Assembly: GCA_043816785.1 (NCBI GenBank)
Contig: JBDRHP010000005.1
Span: 1 to 47,841, forward strand
DNA: 47,841 nt
Origin: Candidatus Margulisiibacteriota bacterium
Lineage (GTDB): Bacteria; Margulisbacteria; WOR-1; O2-12-FULL-45-9
Direction: 5' to 3'
The notes under the pieces are model-generated. The model did no database searches. It saw only the letters and a list, made by a program, of their open reading frames with translations, and was not told the DNA's origin. Positions 12,460 to 19,095 of the stretch are shown here, piece after piece; the first letter of the stretch is position 1, and each line of letters opens with the position of its first letter. The position numbers and the translations under genes were made by a program.

Positions 12460-13269
12460 ATGACAGAAATAAATTTTACAAAAATGCATGGTCTTGGTAA
12501 CGACTTCATATTAATCGACAGCCGCAAAGAAAAACTGGAAGGAATTGACCTCAAACAACTGGCCATTGATCTCTGTGACCGGCATTTCAGCATCGGGGCA
12601 GATGGATTGCTGATCGTCTGGCCATCCCAAAAAGCCCACTACCGCATGCAGATCTTTAATCCGGATGGTTCAGAGCCGGAAATGTGCGGCAACGGCATCC
12701 GTTGTTTTGCCAAATATGTTTATGAAGCCGACCAGTTAAAAGAAGAGGTCCTCTCCGTTGAAACTTTATCAGGCATCATGCTGCCGGCGGTGATCAAAGA
12801 CCTGGCCGGCCAAGTCATTGGTGTGGAAGTGGACATGGGCCTGCCCAAGGACGAAGGCGAAGTAAGCCTGCATGGTTATAAGTTTAAGAAAATCAACATG
12901 GGCAATCCGCATGCGGTCGCGTTTGTTGACGATCCGGCAAAACTGGATCTTTACGATCTGGGCTCCAAGATCGAAAATGACCGCCATTTTCCCAACCGCA
13001 CCAATGTGGAGTTCGTTCGGGTCTTAAATGAGAAGGAACTCGAAGTGCTGGTCTGGGAACGCGGGGCTGGCGAGACCCTGGCCTGCGGAACCGGCGCCTG
13101 CGCCAGTGTGGCGGCCGCGATCTTGGATGGCAAAACCGGCAAACGCGTACTTGTCCACCTGCCGGGAGGGAATCTGGATATCGAATGGGCCGAAGACAAG
13201 CATATTTTGATGCGCGGCCCGGCGGAAAAGGTGTTTGAAGGAAAATATCTTCTCCCGCAAGTTGATTGA
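12460..13269 (+). CDS. dapF: Diaminopimelate epimerase
   Basis: KMHGLGNDF, EMCGNGIRC, MGNPH, ERGAGETLACGTG. Confidence 0.97.
   Translation: MTEINFTKMHGLGNDFILIDSRKEKLEGIDLKQLAIDLCDRHFSIGADGLLIVWPSQKAHYRMQIFNPDGSEPEMCGNGIRCFAKYVYEADQLKEEVLSVETLSGIMLPAVIKDLAGQVIGVEVDMGLPKDEGEVSLHGYKFKKINMGNPHAVAFVDDPAKLDLYDLGSKIENDRHFPNRTNVEFVRVLNEKELEVLVWERGAGETLACGTGACASVAAAILDGKTGKRVLVHLPGGNLDIEWAEDKHILMRGPAEKVFEGKYLLPQVD
13213..13248 (+). repeat. dapF 3'-end segment, repeated at 13949-13984
   Basis: cgcggcccggcggaaaaggtgtttgaaggaaaatat; 34/36 identical to the downstream copy. Confidence 0.9.
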
Positions 13270-13275
13270 AGCATT

Positions 13276-13617
13276 ATGAAAATAGTCGATAATCAGATCA
13301 CTCACAAAGAATTAAAAGAAATGGCGGCGGCTAGTTTCGGCAATATGATCAAAGCGGTCGTTGATCTAAAAAAGGGGATCATGGCTGTCGACGCTCCGCT
13401 CCATGCCGATGAAGAGGCCCTGCTGCTTGAACACGGCTCAAAAAACGAGGATCTCTGGGGGATCAATCTTTATCCTGACCTGACCGGACCAGATCTTATC
13501 GAATATGATTCAATGATCAATCTCCGGCCGGCGCAGAACAACCAGACCAGAGGCGTGGAAGATCCTGCTATTCGGCAAAATATCGCCGCGCTGGTCAACA
13601 AATTGGTGATCGGATGA
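13276..13617 (+). CDS. DUF5674-like protein
   Basis: KAVVD...HADEEALLLE.GS..EDLWGINLYP...IEYDSMINLRP.Q.N motif. Confidence 0.75.
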   Translation: MKIVDNQITHKELKEMAAASFGNMIKAVVDLKKGIMAVDAPLHADEEALLLEHGSKNEDLWGINLYPDLTGPDLIEYDSMINLRPAQNNQTRGVEDPAIRQNIAALVNKLVIG

Positions 13618-13946
13618 ATCATCAGCATCAGGGTCTTTCGGCTGAAAGATGGGCCAAATTAACCTTGTATCAGCAAATGGCCAATATTGGCAGCGAGGTC
13701 GGCCGGGCGCTTAATTGGCGGACCAAAGGGAACGAGGAATACAGCCGTCTGGCTTTTTACCGGTCATTGGAATTGCTGGACCTGACGCTTGAGGTAGACC
13801 GCAAACCTTCTCACCTGAAGGAAATGACTCGGTTGCGCGAATGCTTAGTCGATTATTTTGCCGGGGGCAACCAATACGATTCTTCGGCCACCTCTTGGAA
13901 AAAATATTTCCATCCCTTCAATTTCGCGGCCCGAGCCTCACGTTAA
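13614..13946 (+). CDS. Conserved helical hypothetical protein, coupled to the DUF5674-like gene
   Basis: ATGA overlap with the upstream gene; QMANIGSEVGRA, LELLDLT, E..RLRE..VDYF pattern. Confidence 0.7.
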   Translation: MNHQHQGLSAERWAKLTLYQQMANIGSEVGRALNWRTKGNEEYSRLAFYRSLELLDLTLEVDRKPSHLKEMTRLRECLVDYFAGGNQYDSSATSWKKYFHPFNFAARASR

Positions 13947-13984
13947 TCCGCGGCCCGGCGGAAAAGGTTTTTGAAGGGAAATAT
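13925..13984 (+). repeat. Junction repeat A (cgcggcccg-N15-cgcggcccg) running into a duplicate of the dapF 3' end
   Basis: 13925-13959 is 34/35 identical to 15907-15941; 13949-13984 copies dapF 13213-13248. Confidence 0.9.
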
Positions 13985-14008
13985 TTCCTACAACATCTTC
14001 AGTGATTT

Positions 14009-15124
14009 TTAATAAAATTTAAATTTAATTAAATTAACAATTACATTTTTGCCGGCTTTAGATCCCAGCAAATAAATATGATTCCCAGATGGAGTAACAG
14101 CAATATCGCTAAAATACGGCGGACTTTCTAGTTGTTTTTTTGCAACAGGCACACCCACCTGATTAAATTTGCAGAGGGTGGGAGTGCCCAGAGTTATGGG
14201 AGTGGATTCTGATCCTCCTGATTTAATTGTTTGTGGAAGAAAGAGCGCATAAACATTGTACGCGGAATCAACCGCTACGCGATCTCTCCAACCACTAAAG
14301 ATGCCACTCCAATAGACAAGGTTGCTAGTCGACCAATCGTATGCCATGGGATCAAGCTTTAAGATCACAGTAGTGTTTTTCCAAGCCGCCACTAATGGTT
14401 CCTCGTAAAGTCCATAAGGAAAACCCCTGAGATAGCAGTTCCCTTCTGAATCCACCGCCAAAAACCCTTGTACCCACGCCATACCACCTAAGTATTCTTT
14501 GCTTACTATTATCTCTCCGTTAGAATCAAAGATTAAAAGCGAAGTTAATGGCGTGTTTGGATCGTTAAATATCGCATAAACTTTTCCAGAAGGCTGAACA
14601 TGGAGAGAGTTAGGACCATCATACAATATTTTCCCCCAATCGGTAATTTTCTTTCCGGTCGAGTCAATTTTCTTGATGGCGCTTTCTGTTCCTACTGTTC
14701 TTGCGGCAATATAAACATTTTTGGAATTATCAACACCTATATCAAATATGCCCTTAAACTGGCCGCCTACCACCCCATTATTTCCCCATGCAGCATCAGG
14801 CACTCCAGCAGAAGAAAATTTTCTTATAACAGAGACGTTGTATCCCCCCATATAAATAGAACCCTCGGAATCAATTGCCAATCTGTCTGCGCCATCAAAA
14901 GGAAAATACCAACTTTTTGCTTCAATATACTTTTCAGAAAAAGTAATAGTGGTGGTGGTAGTAACGGGAGCAAGGTCTCCTTTCTCTCCCGCTTTAGGCG
15001 GCCAGTTTTTTTGCGGCACAATAGGGGACATCCTTCTTGTTGCCGCCACAGCAACAAACATCGAGGACATTAAAACAAAAAACAGAAACACAGTAACCAC
15101 TAGCAAAATCTTCTTTCTCATCAC
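14009..15124 (-). CDS. Secreted NHL/SBBP-like beta-propeller protein, paralog 1
   Basis: Signal peptide MMRKKILLVV, Pro/Thr linker, repeated (L/V)A(I/V)DS.G..Y blades; AAGGAGG RBS. Confidence 0.75.
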   Translation of the reverse strand: MMRKKILLVVTVFLFFVLMSSMFVAVAATRRMSPIVPQKNWPPKAGEKGDLAPVTTTTTITFSEKYIEAKSWYFPFDGADRLAIDSEGSIYMGGYNVSVIRKFSSAGVPDAAWGNNGVVGGQFKGIFDIGVDNSKNVYIAARTVGTESAIKKIDSTGKKITDWGKILYDGPNSLHVQPSGKVYAIFNDPNTPLTSLLIFDSNGEIIVSKEYLGGMAWVQGFLAVDSEGNCYLRGFPYGLYEEPLVAAWKNTTVILKLDPMAYDWSTSNLVYWSGIFSGWRDRVAVDSAYNVYALFLPQTIKSGGSESTPITLGTPTLCKFNQVGVPVAKKQLESPPYFSDIAVTPSGNHIYLLGSKAGKNVIVNLIKFKFY

Positions 15125-15241
15125 TTTTTACCTCCTTCGTTTTTTCGGATATCCTGATCCCCTAATATCCAGATACCCCATTCTACCCCCCCCCCCCCCA
15201 GAAAAAGTCAACGCCGGTTTGGCTCATCAGCAAAATCCTCA
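15102..15241. repeat. Repeat B: shared start, leader and promoter region of the two beta-propeller genes (copy 1)
   Basis: Aligns with 16954-17088 from agcaaaatcttctttctcatcac through cagcaaaatcctca. Confidence 0.9.
15180..15211 (-). promoter_or_regulatory. sigma70 promoter with poly-G spacer: TTGACT-ttttct-G14-TAGAAT (20 bp spacer)
   Basis: C14 tract at 15186-15199 lies between attcta and agtcaa on the + strand. Confidence 0.75.
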
Positions 15242-15304
15242 GGCGCAGCCTAGGTGGGGAAAAATCGCTTTTTTTGTGCTTTTTTTTGTGTTAAAATCTG
15301 TCAT

Positions 15305-15487
15305 ATGCCAATATTTAAGGCCCGAAAAAGCAACGAAAAAAAGGAATTGGAGTTTGAGCTTAAGTATCAGCGGTCGCTTTCGCTGACCGAAAGATTCCGC
15401 ATGGCGCTTCGCCAATCAAGATTGGTCCTCCAGATGTTGATCAACCATGGACATAGAAAACCTGCTGAAATTATTAAAAGAGCATAA
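15305..15487 (+). CDS. Small basic protein, putative antitoxin/partner of the downstream nucleotidyltransferase
   Basis: 60 aa from ATG 15305 (TGnTAAAAT 7 nt upstream); SLSLTERF motif; overlaps the next gene. Confidence 0.55.
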   Translation: MPIFKARKSNEKKELEFELKYQRSLSLTERFRMALRQSRLVLQMLINHGHRKPAEIIKRA

Positions 15488-15884
15488 AGTAAAATTCGTA
15501 ATTATCGGGGCGATGGCCTTCCCCGCCTATGGTTATTCAAGGGTAACCCTGGACACGGACATCTTTATCGAACCAACTGAAAAGAACGCGGAAAACACCT
15601 GGAAAGCGCTTAAAAGATTTGGTTATGATATTGCCGATATCACCATTAATGACCTGCTCACCAAAAAATTATTGATCAGGCAATATCTGGTTGAAACTGA
15701 CATCCATCCATTTGTAACCGGTGCTACCTTCGAGGAAGTATGGAAACACAAGAAAACCGGCAAAATAGGGACCATTTCCGTTTATTTCGCTTCTTTGAAC
15801 GATCTGATAAAAATGAAAAAAGCTGCCGGACGGAAAAAAGACAAAGAAGACCTCAAAATACTGAAAATGTTACATGAGCAATAA
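15447..15884 (+). CDS. Nucleotidyltransferase (DUF6036/MNT-like), putative TA component
   Basis: VIIGAMA...R.T.DTDI pol-beta motif; LIKMKKAAGR.KD.EDL C-terminal motif. Confidence 0.8.
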   Translation: MDIENLLKLLKEHKVKFVIIGAMAFPAYGYSRVTLDTDIFIEPTEKNAENTWKALKRFGYDIADITINDLLTKKLLIRQYLVETDIHPFVTGATFEEVWKHKKTGKIGTISVYFASLNDLIKMKKAAGRKKDKEDLKILKMLHEQ

Positions 15885-15906
15885 CAAATAATCCCGCCAC
15901 CTAATG

Positions 15907-15941
15907 CGCGGCCCGAGCCTCACGTTGATCCGCGGCCCGGC
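15907..15941 (+). repeat. Junction repeat A, copy 2
   Basis: cgcggcccgagcctcacgttgatccgcggcccggc, preceded by atg as in dapF (atgcgcggcccg). Confidence 0.9.
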
Positions 15942-15944
15942 AAG

Positions 15945-15974
15945 AAAAAAGCCGCCGGAGATTTCCGACGGCTT
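15945..15974 (-). terminator. Intrinsic terminator of beta-propeller paralog 2
   Basis: AAGCCGTCGGA-AATC-TCCGGCGGCTT followed by a T run on the minus strand. Confidence 0.7.
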
Positions 15975-15995
15975 AAAAATTGGTAGCGCCAAAAA

Positions 15996-16976
15996 TTACC
16001 GTTTTAGATAGGGTTTTGGTATGGCTTGAACCTTATAAGTTAATCTTACAATGCCTCCCTGGCCAACATCGATAACTCCGACCAGATAAATATTATTTCC
16101 AGATGGATCAACAGCCACATCGTAAAAAGGCCCTCCCGCCGGTTTTTTTACCTTAATTATTAGATTGCCCGCCTTTCCAAATTTGAAAATGATATTGCCA
16201 TCCTTGTCTCCCATCGGCTTAAGCACATAAACATTATATGAAGAGTCAATCACCACACGTTCGTTCATGCTATTTATCATGCCAACGTCGTAAGTCGCTA
16301 ATACATTAGTGCCCCCCGGATCGCGCTTGGTAATTTTCCCTCCTCCATCATTAAGATAAAAATTCCCCGCGGAATCCACCGCCAAAAATCCTAGTCCCCA
16401 CATCCCCTGCACCTCTTTTTTTGCAAAAACAGTTTCGCCAGAATTAAATGTGTAAAGCCATGTTATTGGCTGTGGACCAAAAGCAAATACCGCAGAGACT
16501 TTCCCGGAAGACTGAACATGAAGAGCCGTAGGCCCCTGATATAATATTTGTCCCCAGTTAGTTATTTGCTTTCCATTCGGGCTAATTTTTTCAATGCGGC
16601 CGCTGGTCCAGCCCTCTGTTTCTGCGATATAAACATTTTTATTCGCGTCAACTCCCATATCAATTACGGATTTTAGCTGACCGCCCGCCACGCCGTTGGT
16701 CCCCCAAGTAGTATCCAATAAACCGGAAGAAGAATATTTCCTTATGCTGCCACCCATCATATCTCCAGCCAAATAAATAGATCCCGAAGAATCAACCGCC
16801 AATCTCCCTACATTAACATTAGGGACATCCCACCTTTTGGTTTCAACATAGGAATAGGACGTGGGCGCAGGTGTCGGCCCCGGCTTGCTTATCGCCGCCA
16901 TGGCAACAAACAAAAAGGATGTGGCAACAGAAAACAAAAACACGGCAACAACCAGCAAAATCTTCTTTCTCATCAC
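15996..16976 (-). CDS. Secreted NHL/SBBP-like beta-propeller protein, paralog 2
   Basis: Same signal peptide start and blade pattern as 14009-15124 (RLAVDSSGSIY, WGTNGVAGGQ, ITNWGQILYQGP, GFLAVDS). Confidence 0.75.
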   Translation of the reverse strand: MMRKKILLVVAVFLFSVATSFLFVAMAAISKPGPTPAPTSYSYVETKRWDVPNVNVGRLAVDSSGSIYLAGDMMGGSIRKYSSSGLLDTTWGTNGVAGGQLKSVIDMGVDANKNVYIAETEGWTSGRIEKISPNGKQITNWGQILYQGPTALHVQSSGKVSAVFAFGPQPITWLYTFNSGETVFAKKEVQGMWGLGFLAVDSAGNFYLNDGGGKITKRDPGGTNVLATYDVGMINSMNERVVIDSSYNVYVLKPMGDKDGNIIFKFGKAGNLIIKVKKPAGGPFYDVAVDPSGNNIYLVGVIDVGQGGIVRLTYKVQAIPKPYLKR

Positions 16977-17088
16977 TTTTACCTCCTTCGATTTTTTTCC
17001 GAATATCCTAATATCCTAATATCCAGATATCCTATTCTACCCCCCCCAGAAAAAGTCAATGCCAGTTTGGCTCTCAGCAAAATCCTCA
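16954..17088. repeat. Repeat B, copy 2
   Basis: Aligns with 15102-15241. Confidence 0.9.
17034..17059 (-). promoter_or_regulatory. sigma70 promoter with poly-G spacer: TTGACT-ttttct-G8-TAGAAT (14 bp spacer)
   Basis: C8 tract at 17040-17047 between attcta and agtcaa. Confidence 0.75.
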
Positions 17089-17152
17089 TGCGTGTTTGAC
17101 GAAAAATTTAAAAATAGAAGATTTAGTGGGGGAAAGGTACTATAATATCCCT

Positions 17153-17741
17153 ATGCTGGGACAAAAAGAAGTATATATCGTTAGCGGACCAAATGGTTCC
17201 GGGAAAACTACTTTTGTACGACAATTCCTGCCGGAATATGTCAATGTTAAAAACTTTGTTAATGCTGATGACATCGCGGTTGGGCTTTCCCCTTTTGATT
17301 ATTCATCGATGAATATTAAATCGGGAAAACTAATGCTGGGGTTGATAGACGAATATATCGGAAAAGGTGAATCATTTGGTTTTGAAACCACTCTGGCCGG
17401 AAAAAGATGGCTGAAAATGATGCGGGAATTAAAAGATGCCGGTTATAATATCTTCCTTTTCTTTTTAGATATTGCTTCAGCTGAATTAGCCATTTCAAGA
17501 ATTAAATACAGAGTTGAATCAGGCGGACACGATATCCCCGAAGAGACTGCACGTCGCAGATACATTCGCTCCAGAGCCAATTTTTGGTATAATTATAAGG
17601 CGATAGCTGATAATTGGTACTTGTTTGTTCGACAATTCAAGCAAGAACCCGGCAGTTGTCGCTAATAGTATAAAAGACAAGTTAACGATCATAACTTCCA
17701 AATACTATGATTTCTTTATTGCTTCAATTGAAGGAGCGTGA
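17153..17741 (+). pseudogene. Zeta-toxin-like P-loop ATPase, frameshifted by a 4 bp duplication
   Basis: GPNGSGKTT, FVNADDIA, FETTLAG, RVESGGHDIP; removing one TTGT at 17621-17628 restores WYLFDNS and a frame ending at 17741. Confidence 0.75.
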
Positions 17742-17743
17742 TC

Positions 17744-17932
17744 ATGGTCAGCCGAGGAAAAACAGATAAGATCGGTCAAATGGCCGAGAAGGCGTTAAAA
17801 GAAGCAGTCAAAAAAGCGCTTGTCCAGCATCAACAGATGGGCATTCCAGCCGTCTACATGCAAAATGGTAAGATCGTTTATCTAATGCCCGATGGTAAAG
17901 TAGTTGCCAATCCTAAACAACACAAAAAATGA
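17744..17932 (+). CDS. Small partner protein (putative antitoxin) of the zeta-like ATPase
   Basis: AAGGAG RBS; AVKKAL..H...GIP.VY..NGKIV pattern seen downstream of such ATPases. Confidence 0.65.
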   Translation: MVSRGKTDKIGQMAEKALKEAVKKALVQHQQMGIPAVYMQNGKIVYLMPDGKVVANPKQHKK

Positions 17933-19095
17933 AAAAATCTAAAAGGCTGGAAAAAATACCACCCTATCTCTTTGTCAAGATCGAAGAGAAAAAAGAAAAA
18001 CTGCAAAAAGAAGGCAAGGACATCATTGACTTTGGCATTGGCGACCCGGACCTGCCCACCCCCAAGCACATTTTTAAAAAAATGAAAGAAGTGCTGGAAA
18101 AACCGGAATCCGGCCAATACCCAACGTCTAAAGGCGAATTCGCTTTTAGGAAGGCTGTTTCCAAATGGTACAAGAAACGCTTTAAGGTTGAGTTAAACCC
18201 TAGAGATGAAATCTGCTGTTTGCTCGGCTCAAAAGAGGGACTGGCTCACCTGCCCTTATGTTTTATTGATCAGGGAGATGTTTCCTTAGTTCCAGATCCG
18301 TCATACCCGGTTTACAAGATCTGCACTACCCTGGCTGGCGGCGAGCCGTATCTCATGCCCCTGACCGCGGAGAATAATTTTATTCCTGACCTGGACAGCA
18401 TTCCCAAGGACATCCTGAAACGGGCCAAACTGCTCTATATCAATTATCCGAATAACCCCACTGGCGCAGTAGCAGGAAAAGATTTCTTTGCCAAATGTGT
18501 TCAGTTTGCCAAGCAGCATGATCTGCTGCTTGTGTCCGACCTGGCTTATTCTGAAATGGGCTACCTTGGACCTAAACCGATCAGTGTGCTGGAGATCCCG
18601 GGCGCCAAGGATGTAACAATTGAGTTCCACTCCCTGTCCAAAACATATAATATGACCGGCTGGCGTATTGGCATGGCAGTCGGCAACAAAGAAGCGGTCC
18701 AAGCCCTGGCCACCATCAAATCAAACATGGACAGCGGGCAATTCAAGGCCATTCAATTCGCAGCTATTGAGGCATTAAGCGGGCCTCAGGACTGTGTGGA
18801 TGAACACAACAAGATCTTTGGCCAACGCGCCAAAGTCCTGGTCGATGGGCTTAATTCACTTGGCTGGAAACTGGAACCCCTGAAAGCTACTTTTTATGCC
18901 TGGGTTCCGATCCCCAAAGGAGAAACTTCCTCATCTTTTACAGAAAAGCTGCTGGAGAAGTGCGGGATTTTGGTAGTTCCAGGCAGTGGTTATGGTCCTT
19001 CCGGCGAAGGCTACGTCAGATTCGCCATTACTATCCCCAAGGAAAGAATCGCCGAAGCAATCGAGCGGATGAAAAAGAACGGGATTAAGTTTTAA
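17929..19095 (+). CDS. dapL: LL-diaminopimelate aminotransferase
   Basis: PPYLF, FGIGDPDLPTP, GSKEGLAH, NYPNNPTGA, EFHSLSKTYNMTGWRIG; proximity to dapF. Confidence 0.9.
   Translation: MKKSKRLEKIPPYLFVKIEEKKEKLQKEGKDIIDFGIGDPDLPTPKHIFKKMKEVLEKPESGQYPTSKGEFAFRKAVSKWYKKRFKVELNPRDEICCLLGSKEGLAHLPLCFIDQGDVSLVPDPSYPVYKICTTLAGGEPYLMPLTAENNFIPDLDSIPKDILKRAKLLYINYPNNPTGAVAGKDFFAKCVQFAKQHDLLLVSDLAYSEMGYLGPKPISVLEIPGAKDVTIEFHSLSKTYNMTGWRIGMAVGNKEAVQALATIKSNMDSGQFKAIQFAAIEALSGPQDCVDEHNKIFGQRAKVLVDGLNSLGWKLEPLKATFYAWVPIPKGETSSSFTEKLLEKCGILVVPGSGYGPSGEGYVRFAITIPKERIAEAIERMKKNGIKF

Follow-up and report, generated by a model that had tools for sequence, protein, structure and literature searches.

Why do dapF and dapL, two lysine-pathway genes that normally touch, lie 4.66 kb apart in one member of the Candidatus Margulisiibacteriota, and what do the sequences between them do? 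The window analysed is the whole contig JBDRHP010000005.1 (47,841 nucleotides; contig C5 of assembly GCA_043816785.1), part of a genome of 1.53 Mb in 106 contigs that is 86.75% complete and has a GC content of 47%. The gap holds two related genes for putative exported beta-propeller proteins, named propeller 1 and propeller 2 here, and three pairs of small genes interleaved with them. We favour the reading, with a probability of about 0.6, that this junction is a hotspot of insertion and that the duplicated propeller unit found there is phase-variable through its promoter spacers.

Both propeller genes are encoded on the minus strand and are preceded by the same arrangement, TTGACT-TTTTCT-Gn-TAGAAT, with n=14 for propeller 1 and n=8 for propeller 2. 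For propeller 1 (14009-15121), the -10 element TAGAAT is located at 15180-15185 and the G14 run at 15186-15199, followed by TTTTCT and the -35 element TTGACT at 15206-15211. For propeller 2 (15996-16973), the -10 element, the G8 run and the -35 element are found at 17034-17039, 17040-17047 and 17054-17059, respectively. Downstream of both -10 elements comes a leader of about 55 nucleotides, then AAGGAGGT and the ATG. As assembled, the spacers are 20 nucleotides (G14) and 14 nucleotides (G8) long, and a run of G11 would give 17. The standard promoter scan, which admits spacers of 16-18 nucleotides, calls neither propeller promoter, because the assembled spacers are 20 and 14 nucleotides long.

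A regular-expression search of the genome for TTGAYW...TAnnnT pairs with a G/C run of at least 7 in the spacer returned these two promoters alone, and a homopolymer of at least 8 between recognisable -35 and -10 elements is present at both propeller genes. The longest G/C homopolymer in the genome is the G14 run itself, followed by one run of 9 and five of 8; at this GC content, such a length is an extreme outlier. A single close propeller homologue was found elsewhere, P0007 on the 1.9-kb metagenome contig L038, and it has the promoter TTGCAT-16 nt-TATAAT with G4 at the same place in the spacer. Since this homologue has only G4, the long G runs would be a derived feature of the lineage studied here.

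The leader of propeller 2 contains four tandem GGATATNN octamers (16998-17034), which are degenerate in propeller 1 (15140-15175); genome-wide, the octamer array is confined to this locus. The octamers may serve as an operator or form a further repeat prone to slippage. A search of the stretch with Rfam gave one sub-threshold match, to RcsR1, whose 22.9 bits fall short of the gathering score of 60. Elsewhere in the genome (G000), the long G/C tracts are a C9 at C95:17228 and G8 runs at G000:C44:3044-3051 and G000:C69:3400-3407. These two G8 runs are located 6-7 nucleotides before the starts of signal-peptide-like genes (MKIKK...) and resemble Shine-Dalgarno runs.

Pieces identical to both propeller genes were found in contigs of three studies (sequencing runs X1/X2, X3 and X4), namely a biofilm, a groundwater and one unlabelled metagenome, and tract lengths were read from the Logan contigs of runs X1-X4. 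One contig of X1, possibly the run of the source sample, is longer by a single C at the 17040 tract and reads 9 where the assembly has 8 (depth 9.6 of 12.5). At the 15186-15199 tract, two X1 contigs stop, one at either edge, and an X4 contig stops at 15182. None of the runs containing the stretch is on record as RNA. Slippage switching had already been proposed in the first-pass annotation, which was made from the letters of this stretch; the position of the G runs exactly within the -35/-10 spacers speaks for this proposal, and the one length difference supports it weakly, as it is possibly a homopolymer error.

Of the two proteins, 41% of the residues are identical. At this level the synonymous sites are saturated, and the ratio of nonsynonymous to synonymous substitutions is uninformative for the pair for this reason. 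An AlphaFold2 model of propeller 1, computed from a two-sequence alignment, reached a predicted local distance difference test score (pLDDT) of 68 and a predicted template modelling score of 0.71. Its helix at the N-terminus is joined by a disordered linker to some 24 strands. Foldseek matched the model to the six-bladed NHL propellers Brat, TRIM71 and Pizza6 with E values from 4e-12 to 1e-10; matches of the propellers to SBBP/NHL hidden Markov models (HMMs) were weak and under the curated cut-offs. Both proteins are predicted to have a six-bladed NHL-type beta-propeller fold behind a signal peptide; propeller 1 also has a Thr/Pro linker. The hydrophobic N-terminal helix (residues 2-27) is conserved between them, and the N-termini (MRKKILLVV..VAVAAT and ..VAMAAIS) lack Cys and resemble Sec signal peptides that have no lipobox. 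The propellers are probably secreted or surface proteins.

Homologues are rare. A word-index search with the propeller returned the protein itself and two weak matches among 3840 candidates. A profile search gave 12895 matches, and the best 150 of these were the protein itself, a propeller 2 fragment and P0007 (323 amino acids, a full-length relative), the rest being giant multi-repeat proteins. The order's 30 other genomes gave no homologue with an E value of 1e-15 or less; a scan of metagenomes kept 79 loci, one of which was close (L038), and a scan of species genomes kept 71 loci, none of them close. The propeller family is almost orphan.

The two propeller genes are framed by two conserved stretches, repeats A and B. 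Alignment of 13880-15300 against 15860-17150 upheld the earlier description of an A-propeller-B frame that occurs twice with conserved ends and diverged mature proteins, and the open reading frame listing and HMM scans likewise upheld the gene order given from dapF to dapL. Repeat B (15122-15245 and 16974-17092, minus strand) comprises the 5' untranslated region (5'UTR) with a ribosome binding site, the promoter and 34 conserved nucleotides upstream. The similarity is 63/79 in the signal-peptide coding part, 50/61 in the 5'UTR and 30/34 in the 34 nucleotides upstream of the -35 element, beyond which it falls to 18/58. In the mature coding part, 258/567 positions match in the 3' half and 247/383 in the middle, and the linker is unalignable; repeat B is thus 80-88% alike, compared with 46-64% for the coding sequence. 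Repeat B would have been kept because it works as promoter, leader and signal-peptide sequence, whereas the mature parts were free to diverge. The two copies of repeat A match at 34/35 positions, with flanks that match at 16/47 and 24/66. Both repeats are absent from the other contigs of the genome and, at up to 3 mismatches, from 64 other genomes of the class; the suggestion to look for further A and B copies therefore yielded none beyond this locus in 65 class genomes.

Repeat A is readable as the ends of two genes. Copy 1 (13925-13959, plus strand) begins with the final codons of a 110-amino-acid gene (13614-13946, plus strand), the partner of a DUF5674 gene in the first of the small-gene pairs. 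Homologues of this partner in L034 (genome G018) and L035 (G059) end with NYAARAN and NYAARL before the stop, and the codons are alike. The second half reads LIRGPA(EKVFEGKY..), which is the C-terminus of dapF. In line with this, the final 63 nucleotides of dapF (13207-13269) recur with 79% identity at 13943-14005, a remnant that reads LIRGPAEKVFEGKYFLQHLQ up to a stop codon and matches the dapF ends of relatives. Copy 2 of repeat A (15907-15941, plus strand) contains a dapF remnant cut to 17 nucleotides (15925-15941), ahead of the propeller 2 terminator. In total, three copies of the dapF tail are present in register. As its halves match the end of the partner gene and the dapF C-terminus, repeat A is a joint of a partner-gene tail and a dapF remnant, a scar and not a demonstrated recombination site. 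A degenerate dapF-tail pattern matched in 39 of the 65 class genomes, and only the genome studied here matched twice. Both full tails run on into a C-terminal extension (YLLPQVD versus YFLQHLQ) not present in relatives; since it is common to both, the dapF end would have been copied locally. Copy 2 is possibly a microhomology deletion scar (dapF ..HLM-RGP plus partner tail), with matches at about 6 of 9 extra bases.

Other roles of repeat A were considered and rejected. It consists of direct 9-mers, and in four stretches containing only repeat A and its near flanks no inverted repeat or fold was found (z-scores -0.66 to 0.09). Its fold is no better than that of shuffled sequences, which rejects a terminator or RNA element, and a dif or attC site was rejected as no inverted repeat is present. 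The remnant holds a small GC hairpin, and of the 23 occurrences of CGCGGCCCG in the genome, 5 fall within this locus.

The metagenome contig L038 is informative about the age of this arrangement. It contains a dapF remnant (LLMRGPAEKVFEGKY and a stop), a terminator and a convergent propeller gene, and its remnant begins within about one codon of the same dapF point. Ahead of the remnant lies a gene homologous to the DUF4116 gene found between dapF and dapL in genome G019 (L038 1275-1901; L027 1695-3205). Because L038 shows the same layout, a propeller gene convergent with dapF would be older than the present array.

To compare the junction among relatives, a DNA search of 60 relatives was followed by tblastn, and 20 loci with both genes placed were obtained. 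In 17 of these 20 loci, dapF and dapL are at most 37 nucleotides apart, and the remaining three carry other inserts of 0.87-1.66 kb. One insert encodes an AAA_14/DUF4143 ATPase (G009, 1.4 kb), one a 273-amino-acid protein of no named family (G022, 0.9 kb) and one a DUF4116 protein together with a lone Phd/YefM antitoxin gene (G019, 1.7 kb). All three follow an intact dapF stop and have no remnant. No propeller cassettes were found between dapF and dapL among the relatives' loci. The interval, which the first-pass annotation had singled out for comparison across relatives, is variable, and the dapF-dapL junction is an insertion hotspot in this lineage. In one further relative (G027), dapL (L029 565-1645) matches in two pieces, residues 1-68 and 114-388, and may be broken or misassembled. 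Contigs of X1 and X2 join dapF directly to dapL, at a depth above that of this organism's contigs. At the joints 13241->18019 and 13252->17968, the sides are only 28-32 nucleotides long and 85% alike, and a joint 14037->18073 carries 8 extra letters. The direct dapF-dapL joints are probably island-free relatives in the same sample.

The three interleaved pairs behave as independently mobile passengers that resemble toxin-antitoxin (TA) modules, because every pair recurs at other loci in relatives. The similarity of each pair to these other loci stops at the coding parts, and there is no dapF-like flank there. The first pair, located directly behind dapF, consists of a DUF5674 gene (13276-13617, plus strand; PF18924, E 6e-38) and the 110-amino-acid partner mentioned above. 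Its earlier description as a DUF5674 pair is right about the two-gene module, and the DUF5674 domain is present in the first gene only. The pair was found in at least 23 genomes. In G059 (L035 2190-4362), it lies inverted between def-like and fmt-like genes (names read from sequence) with hardly any intergenic DNA, making this junction another housekeeping landing place. The partner has no Pfam match; AlphaFold2 predicts a helical bundle (pLDDT 71), for which Foldseek returned nothing at an E value of 0.001 or less.

The second pair encodes a 60-amino-acid protein (15305-15487, plus strand; homologues 80% identical in L030 and L031) and a 145-amino-acid nucleotidyltransferase (15447-15884, plus strand), whose genes overlap. 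At other loci, in G055 and G052, the pair has 75-78% DNA identity. The nucleotidyltransferase matches DUF2204 (1.6e-7), DUF6036 (1.8e-6) and Aminoglyc_resit only, and PADLOC returned nothing; when compared with AbiE/MenAT and MNT-HEPN systems, the pair showed no DUF1814 toxin and no HEPN partner. A model of the complex of both proteins scored 0.88, and the best of three controls 0.00. Of 80 solved complexes, 58 reach the mark applied, as do 2 of 110 mismatched pairs; these counts hold roughly here, because our own 3-row alignments were used. The runs agree in at least 97% of the contacts, and the pLDDT of the small partner is at least 77. In the model, it covers residues 22-36 of the nucleotidyltransferase, which we read as the catalytic Gly/Asp region. 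The prediction supports binding of the 60-amino-acid protein to the nucleotidyltransferase and does not imply toxicity.

The third pair comprises a zeta-like P-loop ATPase (17153-17737, plus strand) and a 62-amino-acid protein (17744-17932, plus strand), the stop codon of which overlaps the start of dapL. The ATPase has the GPNGSGKT motif and a Zeta_toxin P-loop kinase domain (PF06414, E 5.9e-10). Its frame is not intact: the open frame extends to 17665, and tblastn with proteins of relatives showed a frameshift near 17625, after ..NWYLF, with the last 36 residues in the next frame to about 17737. An X2 contig is identical across the site, and X1 contigs break at 17625/17631; the frameshift looks like a 4-nucleotide tandem duplication. 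Elsewhere the pair is found in G010 and G057, always with one small gene alongside, and homologues of the 62-amino-acid protein (62-78% identical) adjoin zeta-like genes in L032 and L033. In G010, the zeta pair adjoins an MNT/HEPN-like pair (names read from sequence).

None of the small genes matched a known antitoxin family in Pfam, NCBIfam, PADLOC and PHROGs, and searches with them in PADLOC, PHROGs and the PDB sequences gave nothing specific. In the Atlas, the 62-amino-acid protein was found in unnamed clusters only (0.77). The literature search, with supplements outside its scope, found no mention of DUF5674 and, among the matches listed, none of DUF6036. From the earlier claim of TA-like pairs, the mobile modules, one zeta domain and one predicted complex can be retained; set against it are the missing antitoxin family match and the frameshift in the zeta-like gene. 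Any role of the modules within the locus is putative.

Several points weigh against a phase-variable pair of surface propellers. The promoters are sigma-70-like, and the sigma specificity of the host is assumed. Both assembled spacers are off the optimum, and the genes may be weakly expressed or driven in another way. The contig ends and the 9 versus 8 difference might fit tract-length heterogeneity, and homopolymer sequencing error could produce them too. The propeller N-termini have no lipobox Cys and hence no lipoprotein signal, the surface location is putative, and the family comprises three members, two of them here and the third P0007. In addition, the 34/35 identity of repeat A stands amid unrelated flanks and coding sequence of about 46-64% likeness, and a passive scar should have decayed; gene conversion, a recent secondary event or another function could explain this 97% identity.

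Three other explanations have to be weighed against these data. The G runs could be neutral and error-prone, with genes that are constitutively weak or otherwise regulated, in an old tandem duplication with later insertions. The off-optimum spacing of both promoters fits this explanation, as does the fact that such homopolymers are hard to sequence and assemble, with contigs breaking there, and that the L038 homologue manages with G4. Against it, two independent long G runs occupy one and the same promoter position, the genome has no further promoter of this kind, one of the runs is an extreme outlier, and this position is the one of the experimentally established fetA poly-C switch, as far as described in the part of the source consulted (PMC5320596); we regard it as unlikely. 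The explanation of the first-pass annotation was that repeats A and B are recombination handles for swapping or excising propeller variants, with TA-like modules penalising deletions. It would account for ends that are better kept than the coding sequence, for repeat A as an isolated island of identity beyond passive decay, and for a different mobile module in each slot, one of them a predicted tight complex. Against it, A and B occur twice each and of the 65 class genomes only this one has them, no other cassettes and only one close propeller homologue were found anywhere searched, and no recombinase is encoded on the contig, where PF00589 is absent, as the absence of an integrase had been noted correctly before (the two genes of the genome are on C11 and C62). 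Moreover, the conservation of repeat B is predicted by its functions in expression and export, repeat A shows no inverted-repeat structure, and a frameshift interrupts the zeta-like toxin gene. A-A or B-B joints were absent from the X1-X4 contigs, which carries little weight as contigs drop rare variants. With repeats that occur only here, and with A explained by gene tails, exchange through the repeats is very improbable.

The third explanation holds that a recombinase supplied in trans captures small integrase-less modules at the dapF tail (ATGCGCGGCCCGGCGG...), which would serve as an attachment-like site. Each capture would regenerate the dapF end and push the old end downstream, so that inserts would pile up in series, the newest beside dapF. 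The three tail copies in register, the CGCGGCCCG occurrences concentrated in the locus and the small hairpin within the remnant agree with such a process, and L038 has different cargo, a gene for a DUF4116 protein, at nearly the same codon. It is nevertheless improbable, since the inserts of G009, G022 and G019 are found behind an intact dapF stop and free of remnants, a second tail is present only in this genome among the 39 matching class genomes, and the modules have no dapF-like flank at other loci. Both tyrosine recombinases of the genome (291 and 296 amino acids), which we take to be XerC/XerD-like by their protein length, are encoded on other contigs, and the shared tail extension suggests local copying and not import. 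In its strongest form, in which the last 20 dapF codons are a recurrent capture site for integrase-less modules and repeat A is kept as a functional joint, the idea is highly doubtful. If true, it would describe a so far undescribed chromosomal gene-capture array feeding phase-variable surface genes and TA-like modules.

For the favoured reading, a hotspot with a duplicated and phase-variable propeller unit, the following order of events can be proposed. The DUF5674 pair would have been inserted into the 3' end of dapF, leaving the repeat A joint, and this joint would then have been copied along with the propeller unit. The two old propeller paralogues would be the functional core, the mature parts of which diverged, and the mobile two-gene modules would have landed beside their promoters. 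Each propeller gene would be transcribed from its own promoter, with the G run making up the bulk of the spacer between -35 and -10. If strands slip and mispair at replication, the G run would change in length and transcription would go up or down, independently for each gene, with G11 giving the optimal 17-nucleotide spacer.

The gene upstream, dapF (diaminopimelate epimerase, 12460-13269, plus strand), was identified with TIGR00652 (E 5e-89), and the gene downstream, dapL (LL-diaminopimelate aminotransferase, 17929-19095, plus strand), with NF006756 (E 2e-180). Propeller 2 is followed by an intrinsic terminator on the minus strand (15949-15974) with an 11-pair stem and a T run. The genes around the locus are housekeeping genes, including cca, an amidase gene, murI, queD, ispH and others. 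A second dapL-like aminotransferase gene, 46% identical, is located at G000:C24:9343-10503.

For host-adapted pathogens, among them Neisseria, Haemophilus and mycoplasmas, promoter-spacer homopolymer switches are textbook knowledge; to our knowledge, there is hardly any record of them from environmental bacteria that are uncultivated and have small genomes. If the favoured reading is true, two independently switchable genes for exported propellers would allow bet-hedging against phages, grazers or partner cells, and the locus is a clean target for tract-length sequencing. The case also shows that "conserved non-coding repeats" can be decoded as gene-tail scars.

How does the locus compare with known systems? 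The proposal of a candidate new system was too strong, as there are two copies, no relatives with other cassettes and no recombinase. As in an integron cassette array, small promoter-bearing units are arrayed here, and as in the 3'-end genomic islets known at tRNA genes, the tail of the target is duplicated around an insert, the DUF5674 pair (63 nucleotides, 79%). The difference from both is that the repeats here are diverged and explained by gene tails; furthermore, neither an intI gene with attI (PF00589 on C11 and C62 only) nor an attC-type inverted repeat was found. The third pair is similar to epsilon/zeta (PezAT) in its Zeta_toxin domain and one constant small gene. It differs in that the small gene is located downstream instead of upstream and belongs to no antitoxin family, that the toxin-like gene is frameshifted and that no PDB sequence match was found.

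A resemblance also exists to the vlp gene family of Mycoplasma hyorhinis, whose members keep the 5' region and the signal peptide but diverge in their mature parts. In this species, clustered vlp paralogues have their own promoters, and indels in a poly-A tract switch transcription, according to the part of the source consulted (PMC10502178). The propeller genes likewise are clustered paralogues, two copies in this case, with a conserved promoter and signal peptide and a divergent mature part. They differ in number (two genes), in the tract (poly-G, not poly-A) and in having no lipobox Cys; internal size-variable repeats were not found in them, and mobile two-gene modules are located between the genes. 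In Neisseria fetA, the poly-C tract is located between the -10 and -35 elements and varies from 10 to 14 among strains, again as far as described in the part consulted (PMC5320596). The likeness to fetA and porA, on the same partial basis, lies in a poly-G/C promoter spacer in front of a gene for an exported protein, with the length of the tract setting the spacing. In contrast to these systems, the genes here would encode NHL propellers and not outer-membrane porins or receptors, the switching is proposed by analogy, and the host is a bacterium from the environment, uncultivated and with about 1.5-1.8 Mb of genome. The locus is not a new system: the mechanism is familiar and the organism unusual.

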